From assembly GCA_022360445.1 (NCBI GenBank), contig JAKSCV010000075.1, positions 2,988 to 66,987 of the forward strand: a DNA stretch of 64,000 nt, read 5' to 3'. Origin of the DNA: Gammaproteobacteria bacterium (GTDB lineage Bacteria; Pseudomonadota; Gammaproteobacteria; UBA5861). Shown piece by piece: positions 13,862 to 38,903 of this stretch (the first letter of the stretch is position 1; each line of letters starts with the position of its first letter). The notes beneath the pieces are model-generated. The model saw nothing but the letters and a program-made list of their open reading frames with translations, was not told the DNA's origin and did no database searches. A program made the position numbers and the translations under genes.

Positions 13862-14400
13862 CTGAACGTGCTCACAGAGCTCCAGAATCGCGACGTGAAA
13901 GACATTCTGATTGCTTGCGTTGATGGGCCTTAAGGGCTTCCTCGGCGCCATCAGCGCGGCCTTCCCGGACACCCGGAAGCTCTGCATCGTTCACATGGTG
14001 CGAAATCCAGTGAAGTACATGCCCTGGAAAGACTACCAACCGGACACCGAGGATGAAGCGCTGCTCCCGCTCGATGAATTTTCCGAACGCTGGGATGGCG
14101 AATACCTGCAGATCAGCAAATCATGGCGCTCGCACTGGCATAACCTCACCACGCTGTTCAGCTACCCGGAGGATATCCGCAAGGCGATCTACACGACAAA
14201 CGCCATTGAGTCGCTCAACAACGTCATTCACAAGGCCGTCAAAAAACGGCAGCTGTTTCCAACGGACGATTCCGCGATGAAAGTGATCTACCTGTCGACC
14301 TGGGAGGCGTCGAAAAAATGGACTACCCGATCCGCCACTGGAGGCCTTTACACAGAACTATTTACAGGGTCTAATCAAGCTAGGGAAGGTCACATAATCG
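13862..14400 (+). pseudogene. IS256-family (Mutator-type) transposase remnant, 3' two-thirds only, with an internal frameshift
   Basis: The translation ..LLNVLTELQNRDVKDILIACVDG then, in another frame, LKGFLGAISAAFPDTRKLCIVHMVRN...IYTTNAIESLNNVIHKAVKKRQLFPTDDSAMKVIYL matches the IS256 transposase C-terminal region. There is no N-terminal part and no intact ORF. Confidence 0.75.
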
Positions 14401-14902
14401 ACGAGCTTTCCTTCTGCGACAAAACACCAAGATCTTTATCCACAAAAAAGAGGGATTTCCCTTCTTCCCCCACAAGATCTAATTTATCCAAAATACCTTT
14501 AAATAGCTTTTCTTCTTCATGTTGCTCTGCCACATACCACTGTAAAAAATGGAAAGTAGAGTAGTCTTGAGAAGTAAACGCTACATGTGCTAACTCATTT
14601 ATTTTTTTGGTAATAAATTGTTCATGCTCATACGTTGTTCGAAACACTTCACCCAAACTTTCAAAGTCCGTTCTAGGCGCTTCAATAGTGCCCAAAACAG
14701 GCATCGCACCTGTTTCACTGACGTACGTAAAGAGACGCTGCATGTGTCCCATTTCTTCAACTGCGTGGTCACGCAAAAATGCAGCCGCGCCTTCAAAACC
14801 TTTACTTTCACACCACGCACTCATTTGTAGATATAAGTTCGAAGAATAGAACTCAAGGTTTATTTGTTCATTTAGCTTATCAACCATGGTTTGAGATAGC
14901 AT
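14390..14902 (-). CDS. ftnA: Non-haem ferritin (FtnA-like)
   Basis: The 170-aa ORF ([58 protein letters not shown]...[16 protein letters not shown]) is near-colinear with E. coli FtnA, including the ferroxidase-centre residues. Confidence 0.9.
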
Positions 14903-15164
14903 GGGATACTCCTATAAGTAATCAATTAATTCCCTTTCGAATCAATGTTTATTTAGGCTTTATTACCTCTCGCGGCGACTCTTTCATTAAAATAAATAGC
15001 ATATCAATGCTTTTTACTTTCAATTTCTATTAAGGAGAATAGCCGCAATACCCATGGCTATCAAGGCTGAACTGGAGGCTGCATATGCCTGAAATAACCG
15101 TCTATCAGTTTCAATCGAGTCTGATGAGATGGAACGTTAATTCAAATCCAAAAGGAGCATATCC

Positions 15165-15344
15165 ATGAACAAGACTAATACGATTGGAGTTGATCTGGCA
15201 AAGAATGTTTTTCATCTGCGCATTCAGGATGGCGATTCAGCCTACTTCAAGTACCCATCGGACATCCGTCGGGTAACCTACACAACGAATTCCATTGAGG
15301 CTATTCAATATTTTCGGTTTCCCATACTCGCTTATTCTTCATAA
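15165..15344 (+). pseudogene. Chimeric IS debris: an IS110-family transposase N-terminal fragment fused in frame to an IS256-like C-terminal fragment
   Basis: A good SD (AAGGAG) precedes the ATG at 15165. MNKTNTIGVDLAKNVFHL is the IS110-family N-terminal hallmark, and ..DIRRVTYTTNSIEAIQYF is the IS256 IYTTNAIESLN motif. The ORF stops after 59 codons. Confidence 0.6.
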
Positions 15345-15724
15345 CCAGCTCAGTGCATTGTAGGGTTTTAGCAAATCCGACCAAGCAATAACATTCAGAT
15401 CGAAATACTATCGTATTTAATGCCTCACTAAGACAAAGAGCCGCTATCAAACGGGGCATTTTATGAAGATTGGCACATAATACCCCCAAATAAACATTCG
15501 CATCCAAGAACGTCTTCTTGGTGGTCCTCCACTGGCGAAACAGTGGTCATGGTTAAACGGTGGCCAGTTTACGGTATCCAAACAGCGGACAGTTGGTGCA
15601 TGGTTCAGTCCAGATGGAGAGGCACTTCTCCAAGCTCTGGTCGATGGGGTTTGGGGCAGCGCGGAATGCTCCCCAATAGTGATTGAACGACCACACGTTC
15701 ACTGGTTCATGGCTGGCTCGATGC

Positions 15725-15940
15725 CGAGGGCAGGAAGCGGTGATCTACGCACAGGTGACAATTAACCGGGATGGTACGGTGACAGCTCATCAGCTGACAA
15801 AAGCCAGCTCACACAAAGCGTTGAACCGTAAAGAGATGACGTTGATCAATCGCGCTCAACCTCTACCGCCGCCGCCCAAAGAGGTTGGTGGTGAAACAAT
15901 AGCATTCACGTTGCCCGTCTCATTTTCGCTGAAACGTTGA
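15725..15940 (+). pseudogene. Orphan duplicate of the tonB 3' end (TonB C-terminal domain fragment)
   Basis: The translation RGQEAVIYAQVTINRDGTVTAHQLTKASSHKALNRKEMTLINRAQPLPPPPKEVGGETIAFTLPVSFSLKR is about 85% identical to the C-terminus of the intact tonB at 32028-32762. The nucleotide sequence is also clearly alignable. It has no TM or proline-rich part and no plausible start. Confidence 0.8.
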
Positions 15941-16280
15941 TACCTTGTATCTTGCGCCTTGGAATCAATCTGTAGGAACCTCTGATTAACTCCGTACCGT
16001 TTCCGCACGACCTGTTCGCCGCGGCCCTTAGGGGTTTCAATGGATGTGGCGCAAGTAACCTGCTGAAGTTTGCTGGTGTTCACTCGCAGCGATGCGTGAA
16101 CTCGTTCATATCACCTACTGAGTGCTGAAACACAAACAGCCATTTCGGATTGATTATGCTTGGCAGCCAAGACGGTATCTGACTCGCATTTATTACACAA
16201 ACAATTTTGAAGGGGCATGCAATAGCTGGCGGTACTCCATGTATGGGTTTGGGGATAAATTACTGTTCTTATCTTGCCGT

Positions 16281-16979
16281 TTAGTTGTTTTGTCTGGTTG
16301 TGCAGCATTTGGTGTGTCTTATATCTGCAAGTCTGCCTTTCTCCATCACGCCGACGGTTCCCGCCAGTTGATCGGCTTCTGTCTGACTATGGGTAACCAT
16401 AAGTGTAGTAATTTCCTGTACTTTTAATATGTCACGCACCTCCCGCGCCAGGGTGGTGCGCAACTCGCTATCGAGACTGGAAAAGGGTTCATCCATCAAT
16501 AGCAGTCGCGGGTGTCGCGCCAAAGCGCGGGCCAGCCCGATGCGCTGTTGTTGGCCACCGGAAAGTTTGTGCGGGTAGCGCCGCCCCGAATCGGGGAGGC
16601 CAACCAGATCCAGCAGCATTTGAATGCGCTGTTGTTGTATTTTGCGGGGCAAGCCCACAATGCCGAAGCGAATATTGTCGGCAACATTGAGGTGTGGGAA
16701 AAGCGCAAGATCCTGAAACATCATTCCGATTGCCCGTCGCTCGGGTGGCACTGTGTAACCGGCACGGCTCAGCACTTCACCCGCCAGTGAAATGGAGCCC
16801 GTTTGCAGCGGTTCAAATCCTGCAATGGCTCGCAACAGCGTGGTTTTTCCACAACCACTGGGACCCAACAACGCGGCCAGTTCACCAACAGGCAAGGATA
16901 AACTGAGGTCGCTTACCACGACATCGTCGCCGTAGGCGATGGTCACCGAGTCGATGTTTAAAAATGTGGTATCAGTCAT
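16281..16979 (-). CDS. fbpC: Fe(3+) ABC transporter ATP-binding protein FbpC, apparently lacking the usual C-terminal TOBE/MOP domain (possibly 3'-truncated)
   Basis: The 232-aa ORF has Walker A GPSGCGKTT, signature LSGGQQQRIGLARAL and Walker B LLLMDEPFSSLD. The ORF ends in an atypical tail directly abutting the IS-debris region, whereas FbpC is usually about 340-350 aa. Confidence 0.75.
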   Translation of the reverse strand: MTDTTFLNIDSVTIAYGDDVVVSDLSLSLPVGELAALLGPSGCGKTTLLRAIAGFEPLQTGSISLAGEVLSRAGYTVPPERRAIGMMFQDLALFPHLNVADNIRFGIVGLPRKIQQQRIQMLLDLVGLPDSGRRYPHKLSGGQQQRIGLARALARHPRLLLMDEPFSSLDSELRTTLAREVRDILKVQEITTLMVTHSQTEADQLAGTVGVMEKGRLADIRHTKCCTTRQNN

Positions 16980-18522
16980 GAGGTGTCCTTACTTGTCATC
17001 CGGCTGATCAATATGACCGGCAAAAGTCCTGTAACGACGATTGACAGGGCTGGCAGCCCGGCATCGGCCAGACGTTCGTCGGATGCCATTTCAAAGGCAC
17101 GCACAGCGAGGGTGTTGAAATTAAATAGCCGCAGTATCAGGGTTGCAGGCAACTCCTTGAGCACATCGACGAATACTAGTAACAGTGCGGTCAACAGACT
17201 GCCGCGCAATAGCGGTAAGTGTACTCGCCGCAACACGCCCGAAGGTGACTGTCCCAGCGAGCGCGCTGCATCATCCATAGATGGTGTAATTCTGCCCAGG
17301 CCATTTTCCACAGAATGGAGGGAAATCGCCAGAAAACGCACGGCATACGCAAAAAGCAGAACAAATACCGTACCACTCAACATTAAACCCGTAGAGTAGT
17401 CGAATTGCGCGCGCATGATGGCATCCAGCCGGTTGTCGATCCAGGCAAACGGCAACATCACACCCACAGCGATCACCACACCGGGAATTGCATAGCCCAA
17501 CACAGCGATCTGTGCCGATGTACGTACCAGCATATCCGGCCGAAGACGCTGCGCATATCCGATGATCAGCGCCAGTAACAACGCAAGCAATGCGGCGCCT
17601 GCAGCCAGGGACAGGCTCCGCATTACCAGAAAAAGAAAATCGGTGTTAAACGACTCTTCCGCCGTAACCACACTCCAATAGGCCAGCTGGAGGGTCGGCA
17701 AAATAAACCCCAACAGGATTGGCATAAGGCAGAGAAAACATGCGATCCATTTTTTTACGCCACCCAAGGTGAGCAGCGGACTCTTTATAGCGCGCCTGCC
17801 GCTATGGAAGTGCTGTGCCTTACGCCGCGACCATCGCTCCAGCAGGATAAGCGTGACAACAATCATCAACAGGATGGCTGAAAGCTGCATCGCCACCAGT
17901 TCCTCGCCCATTCCGAACCAGACACGAAACACGCCGGTGGTGAAAGTCGCAACGCCGAAATACTGCACAGTACCGTAATCTGCGACAGTTTCCATCAGCG
18001 CCAGTGACAAGCCGGTGATGATCGCCGGTCGGGCAAGTGGAAACGCGACGCTTCGGAATCGCCGCCAGGCACTGGCCCCCAGGGAGCGTGCGGCCTCATC
18101 CACAACCGGAGGTTGCTCGACAAAAGCGACCCGCGCAAGCATGTAAACGTAAGGGTAGAGCACGAGCGAAAACATCACCGCCGCACCGCCCAGGGAACGG
18201 ATCTCCGGAAACCAGTAGTCGCCATGTTGCCAATTGAACAATTCCCGCAGTGCGGTCTGCAAAGGGCCGGCATAGTCTAACGCGCCAACAGCCACGCTGT
18301 GGTGACGCCGATGGACAGCACGCCGACAGACACCCCCGCAACCAGCCAGAACGTGCTAGAGATATAGTCCGGCAGTACCGTCTCGCTGAGATGCGTCCAG
18401 GCATCGCCAAAAGGGGACAACAAACTTGCCAGGACGACCGTTATCGGCAGGGAAAACAGTAAGGTGATCGCTGTTGCCGATAATGTCCAAGGGTTCATAT
18501 TTGCTGTTGGGCGGGTGATCAT
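16976..18522 (-). pseudogene. fbpB: Fe(3+) ABC transporter permease FbpB, split into two overlapping ORFs (18522-18277 for the N-terminal two TM helices, 18295-16976 for the rest). This implies a frameshift or a sequencing error.
   Basis: The N-terminal piece MITRPTANMNPWTLSATAITLLFSLP..WTHLSETVLPDYISSTFWLVAGVSVGVLSIGVTTAWLLAR ends at a TAG. The remaining 439 aa continue in the -1 frame from a GTG. The EAA motif (DEAARSLGASAWRRFRSVAFPLARPA) sits only about 65 aa into the second piece, so the first piece supplies the missing TM helices. Confidence 0.7.
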
Positions 18523-18674
18523 TAACCGCAGATTATACAGATGGCCGTAGATAGAACAGAGCCCTCAGCCCGTGTGGCGTACCTTCTCTTCCTGCAACAT
18601 TGGGGACGCAGCACATCCCTTAATGGGTTTCCACCTGGCACTTGGAAACCCGGTTTTGAGACTGATTGGGTGGA

Positions 18675-19703
18675 CTATTTCCACCCCGCCCTGTCCATGA
18701 CTTTTACAGCTATGGGATTGTTCTCGCCAAGCTCCGTCAGGTTAAGCTGGTCCGCCTTGAACTCACCCCATTGCCTCAGCAGCCTGCTGGGTTTAACGTC
18801 CGCGTGAACCGGATATTCAAAGTTAACCCTGGCATACCATCCCTGCGCTTCCGGGCTGACCAGGTATTCCAATAATTTAACAGCGTTATCGCGGTTTTGC
18901 GAGGCAGCAACCACTCCGGCGCCGCTGACGTTGACATGCGCACCGCGATCATCCTGGTTAGGCCAGAATATCTCCACCCTTTTTGCCGCCCTGCGCTGAT
19001 CCTTATCTTTTCCCTTGAGCATTTTCCCGAGGTAATAAGTATTGGCCACGGCAATATCGCACTGTCCCGCCGCCACTGCCTTGATCTGGTCACGGTCGCC
19101 GCCCTTCGGAGAGCGCGCCATGTTGGCCACCAGTCCTTCGGCCCACTGTTCGGTTTTCTCTTCGCCATTTGCAACGATCATAGAGGCAACCAGCGACTGA
19201 TTGTAGATATTGCTGGAGCTGCGAATGCAGATTCGGCCTTTCCATTTCGGGTCGGCGAGATCTTCGTAGCTCGACAGGTTTTCTTTCTTGACTCGGCCGC
19301 GGCCCTTGGCATACATGATGGGTCGCGAACGTAAAGACAGGCCATACCATTGGCCGTCACGGTCACGTAAATTTTCCGGTATGGCCTGATTTAGTTTACT
19401 GCTGTTAATTGTTGACAATAGCTGCATTTTTTTTGCGCGGTCCAGTCGCCCGGCATCGACAGTGATCAGTACATCGGCGTGTGTATTGGGACCTTCCGTC
19501 TCCAGACGCTTGAGCAGTGCGTCGGCTTTCCCCGTCAGCAGGTTGACCTTGATGCCCGTTGCTTCTGTGAACTCATCCAGCAATGGTTTGATCAATTTTT
19601 CCTTGCGGGCCGAATAAACATTAACTTCCTCCTGGGCAAAAACCGGAAGAGCGGTTGAAAATGCTATCAGGACTGAAAAAAGGATAAAACTGATTTGCTT
19701 CAT
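18675..19703 (-). CDS. fbpA: Fe(3+) ABC transporter periplasmic binding protein FbpA/AfuA
   Basis: The 342-aa ORF has a signal peptide and the FbpA fold pattern (VNVYSARKEKLIKPLLDEFTEATGIKV...). It is the first gene of the fbpABC order. Confidence 0.9.
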   Translation of the reverse strand: MKQISFILFSVLIAFSTALPVFAQEEVNVYSARKEKLIKPLLDEFTEATGIKVNLLTGKADALLKRLETEGPNTHADVLITVDAGRLDRAKKMQLLSTINSSKLNQAIPENLRDRDGQWYGLSLRSRPIMYAKGRGRVKKENLSSYEDLADPKWKGRICIRSSSNIYNQSLVASMIVANGEEKTEQWAEGLVANMARSPKGGDRDQIKAVAAGQCDIAVANTYYLGKMLKGKDKDQRRAAKRVEIFWPNQDDRGAHVNVSGAGVVAASQNRDNAVKLLEYLVSPEAQGWYARVNFEYPVHADVKPSRLLRQWGEFKADQLNLTELGENNPIAVKVMDRAGWK

Positions 19704-19718
19704 TTGATGTCACCTTGG

Positions 19719-19750
19719 GTAAAAAAACCGGCGCACTAGGCGCCGGTTGT
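19719..19750 (-). terminator. Rho-independent terminator for the upstream lipoprotein gene, positioned about 20 nt ahead of the fbpA start codon
   Basis: On the minus strand, AACCGGCGC-CTAGT-GCGCCGGTT is followed by TTTTTTT: a perfect 9-bp GC-rich stem plus U-run. Confidence 0.6.
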
Positions 19751-26862: not shown

Positions 26863-27408
26863 AATCAAAAGCGGTGGGCAGAAGCGCGGAGTAAAATCCG
26901 CACCGCATACAGCTAAAACGTGACTACGTGTTGATGATGACATCCGGCACACCGCACCCGCAGGAATCCGTGCTCCTACCGCCCGAATTTGAGGTGATCC
27001 GCAAATTCCTGTTGCTCATTCTGTGGTCAGAACCTGCCCTGCATCGCCATCACATGCTCGGACTCCGGTAATGCCGTTTGCTGATTTGACGGAGACCGGT
27101 TTTTGCTGGTGCAAAACCCGCATACGACCATCCATGGCAATTGGAGTGCTTGTCCCTGTTGTTGACGTTTATATGGTGGGCTTTGTGGCGACCGGTCGAT
27201 GATCGCGGCCTGAGGCATATCGGCCCCCATTCCATGGAGCGCCAGACATTCTCGTATTCTCAGCAAATCCTCTTTCGCACGACCCCTCCCGGTAACCATG
27301 GCAGGTCGGCGCGAACGGGGTGGCTGGCTGCGCACCCTGCAGGGTGCCCCGGCTGCTGATTCGCGTGAAGCAGGCAATCAACAGTCGGGGGAGCTTAAGG
27401 CCTCATGG

Positions 27409-27840
27409 TTATTTCACCTGGGCCATGTAGTTTTGCAAGCGGTCCTTGTTCATCGCGAATTGTGCGTTGAGTTCGGTGGTCGCCTTGATCGCAGCATCCT
27501 TGTTAACAGCTTTGCCGACCTGAATAACACCCACCATCGCCAGGGCAGTATGCGGAACACATTTGTACACATAGACACCCTCGGCATCTAACTTGATGCT
27601 AACGTCGTTGTTCAGTTCACCACTCCAGGCTTGGCCTCCAGCAGGCGTATGATGCGAAACCCTGTTGTGGGCTGGGTCAACAGATTTGAGGTGACGGTAT
27701 CCCCCGGTACGACGTTCAGGTAACCAGGCTCAAACACCATCATGCCGTCGGCACCATTGTTCAGCATTTTTACCACATGATCTGCAGCGAATACCTGACT
27801 GCCAGGCAACAACAGCAGCCGCGCGGAAAGATTGATAAAA
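27409..27840 (-). pseudogene. Pseudoazurin (type-1 blue copper protein) pseudogene: no usable start codon and an internal frameshift
   Basis: The minus strand encodes ..SARLLLLPGSQVFAADHVVKMLNNGADGMMVFEPGYLNVVPGDTVT. In another frame it continues KSVDPAHN...GVYVYKCVPHTALAMVGVIQVGKAVN..., giving copper ligands C/H/M in a pseudoazurin-like arrangement. An in-frame TAA lies immediately upstream of the signal-peptide region, and there is a frame break near 27688. Confidence 0.65.
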
Positions 27841-31609: not shown

Positions 31610-32031
31610 GCATGGGGCTGGGGCAAACAGACAATGATGATGAGCTGCTTGAATCCCACGAAATCAACGTCACGCCGTTTATTGACGTTATGTTGGTTTT
31701 GTTGATTATTTTCATGATCGCCGTGCCCTTGGCCACGGTTGACGTGCCGGTTGATCTACCCACATCGAATGCCAGCAAACAGGATCGTCCCGATACACCG
31801 GTTTATCTGACCATCAGACAAGACCTCAAACTGGCGCTGGGGGACGAACTTGTCAGCCACGACCAACTAGCGGCGAAGCTTGAGCAAGCCACAGGGGGTG
31901 ACCAAGAAACCCGGTTGTTTTTGCGAGCAGATAAATCAGTGGACTACGGCGAATTGATGAACGTAATGAATCAGTTACGTGCTGCCGGGTATTTAAAAAT
32001 TGCACTGGTAGGCCTTGAAGCGACAACATGA
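31606..32031 (+). CDS. exbD: Biopolymer transport protein ExbD
   Basis: The 141-aa ORF carries the INVTPFIDVMLVLLIIFM TM anchor, overlaps exbB by 4 bp and is followed by tonB. Confidence 0.9.
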   Translation: MSMGLGQTDNDDELLESHEINVTPFIDVMLVLLIIFMIAVPLATVDVPVDLPTSNASKQDRPDTPVYLTIRQDLKLALGDELVSHDQLAAKLEQATGGDQETRLFLRADKSVDYGELMNVMNQLRAAGYLKIALVGLEATT

Positions 32032-32762
32032 GCGTCAACGTTTACCAGCGAATTTTGCAAAAACCCACACTGCGTTGGGGCGGGTCATTTTTTAGCGTGA
32101 CCGCTGTTTATGTTTGCCTGGTGTTTATTGCATTGAGTTGGCGCTCAGCGGTCGACCGTATACCTGCTCCACCCGAGGCAGTCATGATGGTCGACTTGGA
32201 GCCTCTGCCAGCAGCCCCCTCTACTTCAGCCCCTATGCCAACAGAACCGGAACCCGAGCCAGAACCCGAGCCAGAACCCGAGCCAGAACCAGAGCCAGAA
32301 CCAGAACCAGAACCAGAGCCTGTACCAAAGCCAAAACAGGTAGAACAAGTGAGGCCACCCATCACAGAGGAGCAAACCCAGGAAAAGGAACGCGCGTCTG
32401 CTGATACCGAAATACCACCGGCGCTGAAGAGCGCTGCCCAAGCAGGCTCTACATCACCGTCACAGGCCGACGCAGTCGCTACCTGGCACTCGATGTTGCT
32501 GGCGCACATTGAACGCTACAAACGTTACCCAAGACAGGCCCGCCGCCGAGGACAGGAAGCGGTGATCTACGCGCAGGTGACGATTAACCGGGATGGTACG
32601 GTGACAGCTCATCAATTGACAAAACCCAGTGCCTATAAAACATTGAACCGAGAGGTACTGGCGCTAATCAGCCGCGCTCAACCTTTACCGCCCCCACCCA
32701 AGGGAGTTGGGGGAGAAACAATAGCGTTCGTGCTGCCCGTGTCATTTTCGCTGAAACGTTAA
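32028..32762 (+). CDS. tonB: TonB energy transducer with an (EP)n proline-rich spacer
   Basis: The 244-aa ORF has an N-terminal TM helix, PEPEPEPEPEPEPEPEPEPEPEPEP and a C-terminal TonB domain (..ETIAFVLPVSFSLKR). It is translationally coupled to exbD. Confidence 0.9.
   Translation: MSVNVYQRILQKPTLRWGGSFFSVTAVYVCLVFIALSWRSAVDRIPAPPEAVMMVDLEPLPAAPSTSAPMPTEPEPEPEPEPEPEPEPEPEPEPEPEPVPKPKQVEQVRPPITEEQTQEKERASADTEIPPALKSAAQAGSTSPSQADAVATWHSMLLAHIERYKRYPRQARRRGQEAVIYAQVTINRDGTVTAHQLTKPSAYKTLNREVLALISRAQPLPPPPKGVGGETIAFVLPVSFSLKR
32225..32325 (+). repeat. In-frame tandem repeat (GAA/G CCN GAG CCA units) encoding the (EP)n spacer of TonB
   Basis: Runs of gaaccagagcca / gaacccgagcca are visible directly. 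This is coding and is not a CRISPR array. Confidence 0.8.
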
Positions 32763-37317: not shown

Positions 37318-37356
37318 AATAATGATTGACATCATAACAAGAATCATTATCATTTA
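37318..37356. promoter_or_regulatory. Fur box upstream of hemP
   Basis: AAATAATGATTGACATCATAACAAGAATCATTATCATTT contains near-consensus Fur half-sites (AATGATTGACATCAT / GAATCATTATCATT). Confidence 0.65.
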
Positions 37357-37646: not shown

Positions 37647-38903
37647 ATGAAAAAATTTATTGCGTTACTTGCCGGCATTGCACTGAGCACCAGTGGGTGG
37701 GCAAAAACAACGGAAAAAGCTGTTCTCACACACTACGCTGATTTAGCTCATGCTATGTATCAGGACTCACTGATCACAGCCCAGGCACTCCATAAAGCAG
37801 TGAAGCAATTAGCCGCTCAACCCACGGAAGCCAATCTCAACCATGCAAAAGTTGCTTGGAAAGCCGCCCGTGTCCCCTATCAGCAAACAGAAGCCTACCG
37901 CTTTGGCAATGCCATCGTTGATGACTGGGAAGGCAAAGTCAACGCATGGCCACTGGATGAAGGTCTGATCGATTATGTCGATGGCAGTTATGGCTCAGAG
38001 TCCGATGAGAACCCCTACTACACGGCTAACATCGTCGCCAATGAAAAACTCATGATTGGTGGCCAAAGCATTGATACCGGCAACATTACCAAAGCGCTTC
38101 TGTCCGATACTTTGCACGAAATTGATGAGGTTGAGTCAAATGTTGCCACAGGTTATCACGCCATTGAATTCTTACTGTGGGGGCAAGATTTGAATGGTAC
38201 CCAAGCTGGTGCAGGTAAACGCCCTGCCAGTGATTTTTCTAACGAAAACTGCACTGGAGGTCACTGCGATCGCCGAGTCGCCTATCTTCTCGCCACGACC
38301 GAATTACTCGTTGATGAACTCAACTGGATCACATCTCAATGGGCCAAAGGTGGAGATGCTCGCAAAGCCCTGATGGACGGCGACAGCAAAGCAAGCATCG
38401 GCACTATTTTGACCGGGCTAGGCAGCCTCTCCTATGGCGAGCTGGCCGGAGAGCGAATGAAGCTCGGAGTCATGCTGCACGACCCGGAAGAAGAACACGA
38501 CTGCTTTAGCGACAATACGCACTGGTCACACTATTACGATGCTATGGGCATAAAAAATGTTTATACAGGCCGTTACACGCGCGTTAGCGGTGAAACACTC
38601 AGTGGCCCCAGCGTCTCATCACTGGTGGCCAAGAAAGACGCAAAGGTCGATCAGGCGCTACGTGATCAAATTGAAACTACACTGGCCAAAATGCAAGTCC
38701 TGGTCGATAGCGCTGAAAAAGACAACGTTGCCTACGACCAGCTCATCGCAGAAGGAAATACCGCAGGAAACGCCAAGGTAATGGATGCTGTTAACGCGCT
38801 TGTTGCGCAAACCAAAGGAATCGAAAGCGCAGTGGCTACTTTAGGGCTCAACCCTATTGAGTTCGAGGGCTCAGATAGCCTTGATGCACCGCATAAAGTC
38901 TAG
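37647..38903 (+). CDS. Imelysin-family lipoprotein (IrpA/IcmP-like)
   Basis: The 418-aa ORF has a signal peptide plus the GYHAIEFLLWGQD (GxHxxE) imelysin motif. Confidence 0.75.
   Translation: MKKFIALLAGIALSTSGWAKTTEKAVLTHYADLAHAMYQDSLITAQALHKAVKQLAAQPTEANLNHAKVAWKAARVPYQQTEAYRFGNAIVDDWEGKVNAWPLDEGLIDYVDGSYGSESDENPYYTANIVANEKLMIGGQSIDTGNITKALLSDTLHEIDEVESNVATGYHAIEFLLWGQDLNGTQAGAGKRPASDFSNENCTGGHCDRRVAYLLATTELLVDELNWITSQWAKGGDARKALMDGDSKASIGTILTGLGSLSYGELAGERMKLGVMLHDPEEEHDCFSDNTHWSHYYDAMGIKNVYTGRYTRVSGETLSGPSVSSLVAKKDAKVDQALRDQIETTLAKMQVLVDSAEKDNVAYDQLIAEGNTAGNAKVMDAVNALVAQTKGIESAVATLGLNPIEFEGSDSLDAPHKV

Follow-up and report, generated by a model that had tools for sequence, protein, structure and literature searches.

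A 94-nt deletion in the permease gene fbpB points to recent inactivation of a ferric-iron ABC importer in an uncultured gammaproteobacterium

The ferric-iron ABC importers FbpABC of Neisseria gonorrhoeae and HitABC of Haemophilus influenzae are encoded in the order solute-binding protein (SBP), permease, ATPase, and their permease is an intact fusion of two modules. The same order is found on the minus strand of a stretch of 64,000 nucleotides from contig JAKSCV010000075.1 of an uncultured marine-type gammaproteobacterium, referred to as the window, but the permease gene is disrupted there. Homology justifies the designation of this locus, fbpA-fbpB-fbpC, as a putative FbpABC/FutABC-type ferric-iron ABC importer operon, and homology of the SBP together with the gene neighbourhood suggests Fe(3+) as the substrate. 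The best explanation of its present state, to which a probability of roughly 85% is assigned, is an ordinary recent pseudogenisation by a single deletion of 94 nt in fbpB, in an operon belonging to a sub-clade whose ATPases naturally consist of the nucleotide-binding domain (NBD) only.

Among solved structures, FbpC of N. gonorrhoeae (3fvq; E=4e-51, residues 3-218 of 359) matches the window ATPase best. In that protein, residues 242-352 constitute the regulatory domain (Newstead et al. 2009, PMC2896483), and this domain-swapped part of 110 residues is lacking in the window ATPase. FbpA of the window is distant from the FbpA proteins of Neisseria and Haemophilus (E about 1e-30) and much closer to the FutA type, as it can be aligned end to end with FutA1 of the FutA1/FutA2-FutB-FutC system of Synechocystis (IdiA-type; 2pt1, 2voz). 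Of the solved iron ABC transporter 9j4r, chain B matches the window ATPase (E=7e-50), and chain A matches an intact permease of the window's closest clade (E=4e-41, residues 47-522). The Fut and 9j4r systems have an intact permease with 12 transmembrane helices (TM) and an ATPase of 340 amino acids with a C-terminal domain, both of which are missing from the window. The closest clade itself, from uncultured Gammaproteobacteria (loci L074 to L080), possesses NBD-only ATPases, and its permeases and ATPases are about 75% and 60-64% identical to those of the window, respectively. It shares with the window the length class of the ATPase, the PHKLSGGQQQR context and the overlap of permease stop and ATPase start, but its permeases are intact, including YRFPGR and TM3, and the C-terminal tails of its ATPases are different. 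In three of these loci (L074, L075 and L076) no SBP gene is located beside the permease gene, the upstream genes specifying ferritins, a bfd-like ferredoxin or a SnoaL-like protein, whereas in the window fbpA is situated directly upstream. A further NBD-only ATPase, ThiQ of ThiBPQ, has about 232 amino acids and also serves a fused double-module permease. FbpC of the window spans positions 6-210 of the 213 in the ThiQ model, but scores only 158 bits against cut-offs of 245-298, and its SBP is a ferric-binding protein rather than ThiB. By analogy, the ThiQ precedent shows that in a related family of importers a short NBD can be functionally complete.

In the window, fbpB is present in two pieces. 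The first (18277-18522, minus strand) comprises 81 codons specifying two hydrophobic helices, TM1 and TM2; it ends with ...GVTTAWLLAR followed by TAG at 18279-18277, and no domain was matched in it by Pfam. The second continues in the -1 frame. Its mechanical open reading frame (ORF) of 439 codons starts with GTG at 18295 (16976-18295, minus strand), the first five codons being out-of-frame sequence of the N-terminal piece. The homologous part (16976-18280, minus strand) contains about 434 codons and covers TM4 to TM12 with both EAA modules, which appear in Pfam as two BPD_transp_1 stretches. The single fused permease expected as one continuous ORF of about 520-575 amino acids with 12 TM is therefore not found.

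For comparison, 71 orthologous loci were fetched, typically specifying an SBP of about 340, a permease of 549-575 and an ATPase of 347-364 amino acids. Alignment of the two window pieces to these orthologues revealed that about 31 conserved residues are gone between TAWLxx and LDYAGP. Permease scans of genome and metagenome contig collections yielded no relative above 64% identity; the short clade, whose permeases are about 75% identical to the window (long clade, 55-64%), and the contigs of other strains described below turned up through protein search only. In the short clade, the permease reads ...GVTTAWLVAR, then YRFPGRALFAWALLLPLAMPAYIIAYTWTGV, then LDYAGPLQS..., while in the window ...GVTTAWLLAR is directly followed by (L)DYAGPLQT. 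The N-terminal piece can be aligned with the permeases of the short clade as far as ...TAWLVAR, with 65-68% identity, and the C-terminal piece is about 75% identical to them. The nucleotides at the junction are GCG CGT TAG ACT ATG. Here, TTA (18278-18280, minus strand) is composed of the last base of Arg81 (CGT) and the TA of the stop codon, and it is at the same time the Leu codon opening the homology of the C-terminal piece. Missing relative to the closest relatives are the 31 codons of YRFPGRALFAWALLLPLAMPAYIIAYTWTGV plus 1 nt, that is 94 nt, in agreement with the coordinates of L074 (76+18). The lost segment corresponds to the cytoplasmic YRFPGR loop and TM3, which are among the most conserved stretches of the protein, and it is kept in 75 out of 75 orthologous permeases compared.

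A reading made from the letters alone, the sequence-only reading, had already described this layout of fbpA, split fbpB and fbpC, and it was right that fbpB is genuinely split by a TAG after 81 codons. The term frame break understates the damage, since 31 codons are gone in addition to the one base. For the same reason, the test it had proposed, a single-base correction restoring an ORF of about 515 amino acids, is misleading: adding one base does produce an ORF of about 515 amino acids, yet the protein would still be without the FPGR loop and the core helix TM3. Read-through would invert the topology of all segments that follow TM2. Programmed frameshifting in fbpB was considered as well and ruled out, since a one-base slip would not account for the loss of 31 codons. 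More generally, an apparent frameshift can hide a larger in-gene deletion that is masked by a one-base correction.

Both inferred breakpoints carry TTA, and this microhomology suggests slippage or a microhomology-mediated deletion. Most likely, two TTA triplets were joined in one of these ways. The deletion itself removed the YRFPGR loop and TM3, shifted the frame and created the immediate TAG. With a conserved core helix missing, the permease is predicted to be non-functional, and with a dead permease the whole transporter would be dead.

The lesion is also present in other assemblies. Contig L073 (ERZ23500306) is 99.57% identical to window positions 18377-16531 with eight substitutions and no gaps, and L083 (ERZ23498929), from a different project, is 99.59% identical to 18383-16680 with seven substitutions and no gaps. 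The 30-mer spanning the junction is identical in both, while the samples and the single-nucleotide polymorphisms (SNPs) differ. Since the same junction occurs in two contigs each with SNPs of their own, the deletion is real and inherited by several co-occurring strains. In three strains the C-terminal piece forms an uninterrupted frame of 439 codons. In a search of 5.8 billion clustered proteins, copies of the broken 439-residue form about 99% identical to the window were followed by no intact allele closer than 75%.

The size of fbpC is the second feature that needs to be explained. The gene (16281-16979, minus strand) is an ORF for 232 amino acids, and its ATG overlaps the fbpB stop codon (ATGA). 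Walker A, Q-loop, LSGGQ, Walker B and H-loop are all present, and Pfam detects ABC_tran alone (E=9e-36) without a match to PF08402. In NCBIfam searches FbpC falls among importer ATPases bearing a TOBE domain, but only their first 220 positions or so are matched; likewise, homology to the long ATPases ends at about residue 222. The sequence-only reading had correctly noted a complete NBD in a family whose members are normally longer, the ATPases of the wider family having 347-364 amino acids with TOBE, and had deduced a truncation by which TOBE was lost. It had also named an observation that would speak against decay, close relatives with an equally short and functional FbpC, and relatives with such a short FbpC exist. 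The best ATPase matches include P0002, P0003, P0004, P0021, P0027 and P0034, all of 222-229 amino acids, representing at least four lineages. These short ATPases cover 94-97% of the window FbpC compared to 91-92% for those of about 350 amino acids. They end 7-14 codons after the G-x-L closing the NBD, which is within 10 codons on either side of the window stop. Their C-termini (...GVMKHGKLAHWDDCHA, ...GVLKGGELAQWDDVPH, ...FMKDGQLEDGFK and ...GVMKNGHLNQWSNAEKPYKR; window ...GVMEKGRLADIRHTKCCTTRQNN) are variable in sequence and length, and the domain equivalent to residues 242-352 of the gonococcal FbpC is lacking entirely.

In four distinct lineages, the short gene ends inside the contig and is preceded by an intact permease gene of the window's type (518-539 amino acids). 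Downstream sequences are mutually unrelated, with a TonB-dependent receptor in one lineage and an RHH/ParE toxin-antitoxin system in another. Between lineages of the short clade, non-synonymous differences (pN 0.14-0.28) are much rarer than synonymous ones (pS 0.63-0.79), the catalytic motifs are all kept, and dN/dS is about 0.12 in the one pair with measurable dS. The low pN relative to pS and the retained motifs indicate that the NBD-only form is selectively maintained and does not represent damage. Remnants of TOBE 3' of fbpC were searched in the window and in the short-clade loci by tblastn with 66 C-terminal tails of the long clade; none was found (best E 0.04), against 63 hits in the positive control. 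Two strain-level contigs from two further samples, L081 (window 17775-16276) and L082 (window 17190-15822), contain the same ORF of 232 amino acids without gaps, L081 being collinear with the window and L082 including also the spacer and the tonB remnant described below. As judged from these sequence comparisons, fbpC is complete for its clade and not truncated. The case illustrates that a gene below the average length of its family can wrongly be called truncated although a short form is natural in its own sub-clade. The existence of a TOBE-less FbpC clade is a mildly new item.

A departure from collinearity was noted in L073, which leaves the window at 16531 and continues with 446 bp of unrelated GC-rich DNA (L073:1848-2293) after the LSGGQQQRI codons of fbpC. 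This tail was considered as a second fbpC lesion and rejected, as L081 and L082 are collinear there and the breakpoint coincides exactly with LSGGQQQRI. A chimeric metagenome assembly, joined at this conserved ABC motif, is the probable cause, although a strain-specific rearrangement is conceivable.

To estimate how far decay has proceeded, columns at least 97% invariant among orthologues were inspected. The window violates 1 of 89 such columns in FbpA, 2 of 116 in FbpB and 2 of 57 in FbpC. In intact orthologues the median is 0 for the same columns, with maxima of 4, 25 and 3, respectively. The values for the window are slightly high but within the range, which argues for a young lesion, and with strains differing by about 0.5% and one or two invariant columns violated per gene the lesion would be recent. 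Comparison of the strains over the C-terminal piece of fbpB and fbpC revealed 16 segregating sites with a dN/dS of about 0.46, seven of them synonymous and nine non-synonymous. Of the latter, four are on columns at least 97% invariant, no fewer than the share of such columns among all residues (roughly 24%) would predict. In the permease, P390L is found in the window only (P in 61 of 61 orthologues) and G278D in L073 only (G in 60 of 61), and prolines are introduced by A234P in L081 and T369P in L083. In the ATPase, the window carries the derived replacements A148G, next to the LSGGQ motif (A in 66 of 66), and P155R (P in 64 of 66). Selection on the operon would have been relaxed by the loss of the permease and private replacements would then accumulate; those observed are consistent with the pattern expected after recent release from selection. 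The sequence-only reading is thus borne out in describing the operon as decaying and the break in fbpB as genuine, but not in its several independent inactivation events: one lesion is demonstrated, accompanied by early point-mutational drift, of which fbpA and fbpC, still intact ORFs, show the first signs.

Some observations weigh against this interpretation. L081 and L082 do not reach the junction, so that the deletion is documented for part of the strains only. The ancestral sequence of the junction was inferred from relatives that are 75% identical. Under neutrality, so few non-synonymous sites among the strains have P=0.095, so that dN/dS is not significantly below the neutral value, and the ratio of non-synonymous to synonymous sites would also be compatible with moderate purifying selection. 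When the window is compared with L082, SNPs are rarer in coding sequence (5/910) than in the spacer and tonB remnant (13/459; Fisher p=0.0014), although the comparison restricted to synonymous sites is not significant (p=0.14). Relaxed selection on the operon does not fully account for this approximately fivefold lower coding polymorphism. It could mean that fbpC or the 3' part of fbpB is still under some constraint, that L082 lacks the deletion, or that the flank has a different recombination history. The last 14 residues of FbpC (DIRHTKCCTTRQNN) are unlike the xWDD tails found in two members of the short clade; the 3' end of fbpC might therefore have undergone a small replacement, but the tails are not conserved within the clade either. 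Finally, a second intact permease might be encoded elsewhere in the genome, outside the window.

Of the other explanations for the broken permease gene, a sequencing or assembly artefact with a continuous gene in reality, which the sequence-only reading had offered as its alternative, deserves hardly any credence. The source is a metagenome-assembled genome (MAG), and MAGs can carry indel errors. However, 94 nt of conserved sequence are lost, which is no homopolymer indel; only 3 nt of microhomology surround the loss, so that there is no repeat to collapse; and the gap-free junction in two other samples, one of another project, leads us to reject the artefact. A functional permease made of two polypeptides would require translation of the C-terminal piece from GTG 18295, giving an importer of 11 TM working with the short FbpC and placing the N-terminus of this piece in the periplasm. 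Termination-reinitiation is conceivable, as the GTG lies 16 nt upstream of the stop codon of the N-terminal piece, and the open frame in three strains, the SNP density below that of the flank and dN/dS below 1 would be in line with it. On the other hand, the FPGR loop and the LLLPLAMPAYIIAY helix that were lost belong to the most conserved parts in all orthologues, no Shine-Dalgarno sequence precedes the GTG, and private P-to-L, G-to-D, A-to-P and T-to-P replacements hit invariant or TM positions. A frame of 1.3 kb is also expected to be still open in a young pseudogene that has diverged by about 0.5%, and we regard a working split permease as highly improbable. Another improbable idea is that a small clade of ferric-iron importers has given up the TOBE domain of the ATPase and, in most members, the linkage of the SBP gene, the window lineage with its adjacent fbpA being intermediate; remoter still is a two-piece permease without TM3 as a working 11-TM variant.

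Truncation of fbpC in the same rearrangement as introduced the tonB remnant and fragments of insertion sequences (IS), with loss of about 120 TOBE codons, is very unlikely. It would be favoured by the size of most family members, the long clade with 347-364 amino acids and PF08402, by the regulatory domain of the gonococcal protein (residues 242-352; PMC2896483), by the visibly rearranged DNA 3' of fbpC and by the 14 C-terminal residues, which match nothing. The short ATPases maintained by selection in at least four independent lineages and different contexts argue against it, as do the missing TOBE remnant, the tails varying across the clade, and a spacer of 340 nt rather than an IS end after the stop codon. 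That fbpB alone is dead while fbpA, and possibly fbpC, are kept for another function such as iron binding or delivery, or as a shared ATPase, is unlikely, but it has more to recommend it. FutA/IdiA-type proteins have roles beyond transport in cyanobacteria. FbpA of the window is full length with one violation in 89 invariant columns, and the short-clade loci without an adjacent SBP gene indicate that SBP and permease/ATPase can be unlinked. Retention is disfavoured by a possible stop at fbpA codon 227 in one strain, by the two replacements at invariant columns in fbpC of the window strain, and by a strong terminator that lies 23 nt before fbpA and is followed by no recognisable promoter. Pseudogenisation of the operon by the 94-nt deletion remains the preferred explanation.

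The fbpA gene (18675-19703, minus strand) is intact, as the sequence-only reading had stated. It specifies 342 amino acids including a signal peptide and is preceded by the ribosome-binding site AAGGTG. Solute-binding-protein domains (SBP_bac_6/8/1/11) are detected by Pfam, and the match to FutA1 is full length (2pt1; E=7e-104, query 23-342 to chain residues 17-334), with other solved ferric-binding proteins aligning as well. Identity to orthologues is 62-65% up to the last residue, and 88 of the 89 invariant columns are kept. The protein is identical to MCG8382943.1, annotated as Fe(3+) ABC transporter substrate-binding protein; the trigger factor and ferritin of the window are likewise identical to MCG8382930.1 and MCG8382940.1, and all three entries belong to one contig of a MAG. 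FbpC, the piece of 439 and the piece of 81 amino acids have no entry in the protein collection, only two protein accessions lie between the ferritin (MCG8382940.1) and FbpA (MCG8382943.1), and exact-product look-ups of fbpA, fbpC and the C-terminal piece of fbpB gave no match in the contig index. In one strain, fbpA may be interrupted by a stop codon. In contig L084 (ERZ23500272), from another sample, four substitutions are clustered in 6 nt of codons 225-227 (L084:967-972, window 19030-19025), changing YYLGKM to YYPG-stop. The putative stop at codon 227, after the YY pair, would leave an FbpA of 226 amino acids, but the cluster is only 50 nt away from the contig end and was taken as unverified.

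The intergenic region between fbpA and fbpB (152 nt; 18523-18674, minus strand) contains a putative hairpin, GGGTTTCC...GGAAACCC, recognised by sequence inspection. Upstream of fbpA, the intrinsic terminator of the preceding lipoprotein gene (19726-19748, minus strand; 9-bp stem with seven GC pairs and a T7 tail) ends 23 nt before the ATG, and the same sequence is found in L084. No promoter was recognisable between this terminator and the fbpA start, and a promoter scan at the operon detected one weak sigma-70-like site compared to 3.2 expected by chance. A Fur box with at least 14 of 19 matches was not found near the operon. The two best Fur-box-like matches of the window (14/19 and 15/19) overlap each other at 37318-37351; the second imelysin-like gene (37647-38903) begins about 300 nt downstream of them.

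Downstream, fbpC does not abut IS debris, as had been proposed, but is followed by a non-coding spacer of 340 nt (15944-16280) without Pfam or TOBE similarity. Next is a tonB 3' remnant on the opposite strand (15683-15940, plus strand), convergent with fbpC and consisting of 85 codons for the C-terminal domain only (TonB_2, E=2e-11). It is 82% identical in nucleotide sequence to the end of the intact tonB gene (32028-32762, plus strand) located 16 kb away in an exbB-exbD-tonB cluster, and its three strain SNPs are all non-synonymous, as expected of a dead copy. When Pfam was run over every stop-free stretch of at least 35 amino acids in 14880-16330, the only matches were TonB_C and two marginal ones, to a Transposase_mut scrap and to DUF2237, and no cupredoxin was detected. 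The order of elements 3' of fbpC is spacer, tonB remnant, DUF2237-like scrap, IS256-like scrap, intact ferritin gene and truncated transposase gene. The DUF2237-like match (E=0.03, ...DSWCMVQSRW...) stems from two overlapping frames at 15432-15762 (plus strand), which may be another decayed small gene. The nearest transposase-like scrap, 67 amino acids at 15141-15341 (plus strand), is about 940 nt away from fbpC and reaches E=0.2 only; its N-terminus (MNKTNTIGVDLAKNVFHL) resembles IS110, and its YPSDIRRVTYTTNSIEA motif resembles IS256. The truncated IS256-family gene (Transposase_mut; 13911-14564, plus strand) covers profile positions 233-377 of 379 (E=6e-24). The flank is a small graveyard of which fbpC is not part. 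The pseudoazurin pseudogene reported as a downstream neighbour exists, but it is situated 8 kb off on the other side of the operon (about 27.35-27.83 kb). This pseudoazurin-like gene (27350-27830, minus strand) is split by a frameshift, with KSVDPAHN...GVYVYKCVPHTALAMVGVIQVG in one of the two frames, and it is placed between the two TonB-dependent receptor genes.

These receptors belong to a group of iron genes around the operon, which also includes ferritin, exbB-exbD-tonB, imelysin-like lipoproteins and a PepSY protein. By trigger factor, the nearest other lineage (94% identical) is a MAG labelled Porticoccaceae. Its sister population, to which the window belongs, consists of uncultured Gammaproteobacteria and is predicted from the locus to have lost one of its routes for taking up ferric iron. 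Other iron systems, two TonB-dependent receptors, exbBD-tonB and imelysin-type proteins, are kept next door, which fits gene loss driven by redundancy. As an ordinary young pseudogene, fbpB poses no challenge to current understanding. The GC content of the window rises in a step at about 16000, from 41-49% in the housekeeping part (1-16 kb) to 51-57% in the iron-uptake part (16-33 kb). This step coincides with the rearranged flank 3' of fbpC and may mark the edge of an acquired iron-uptake island.

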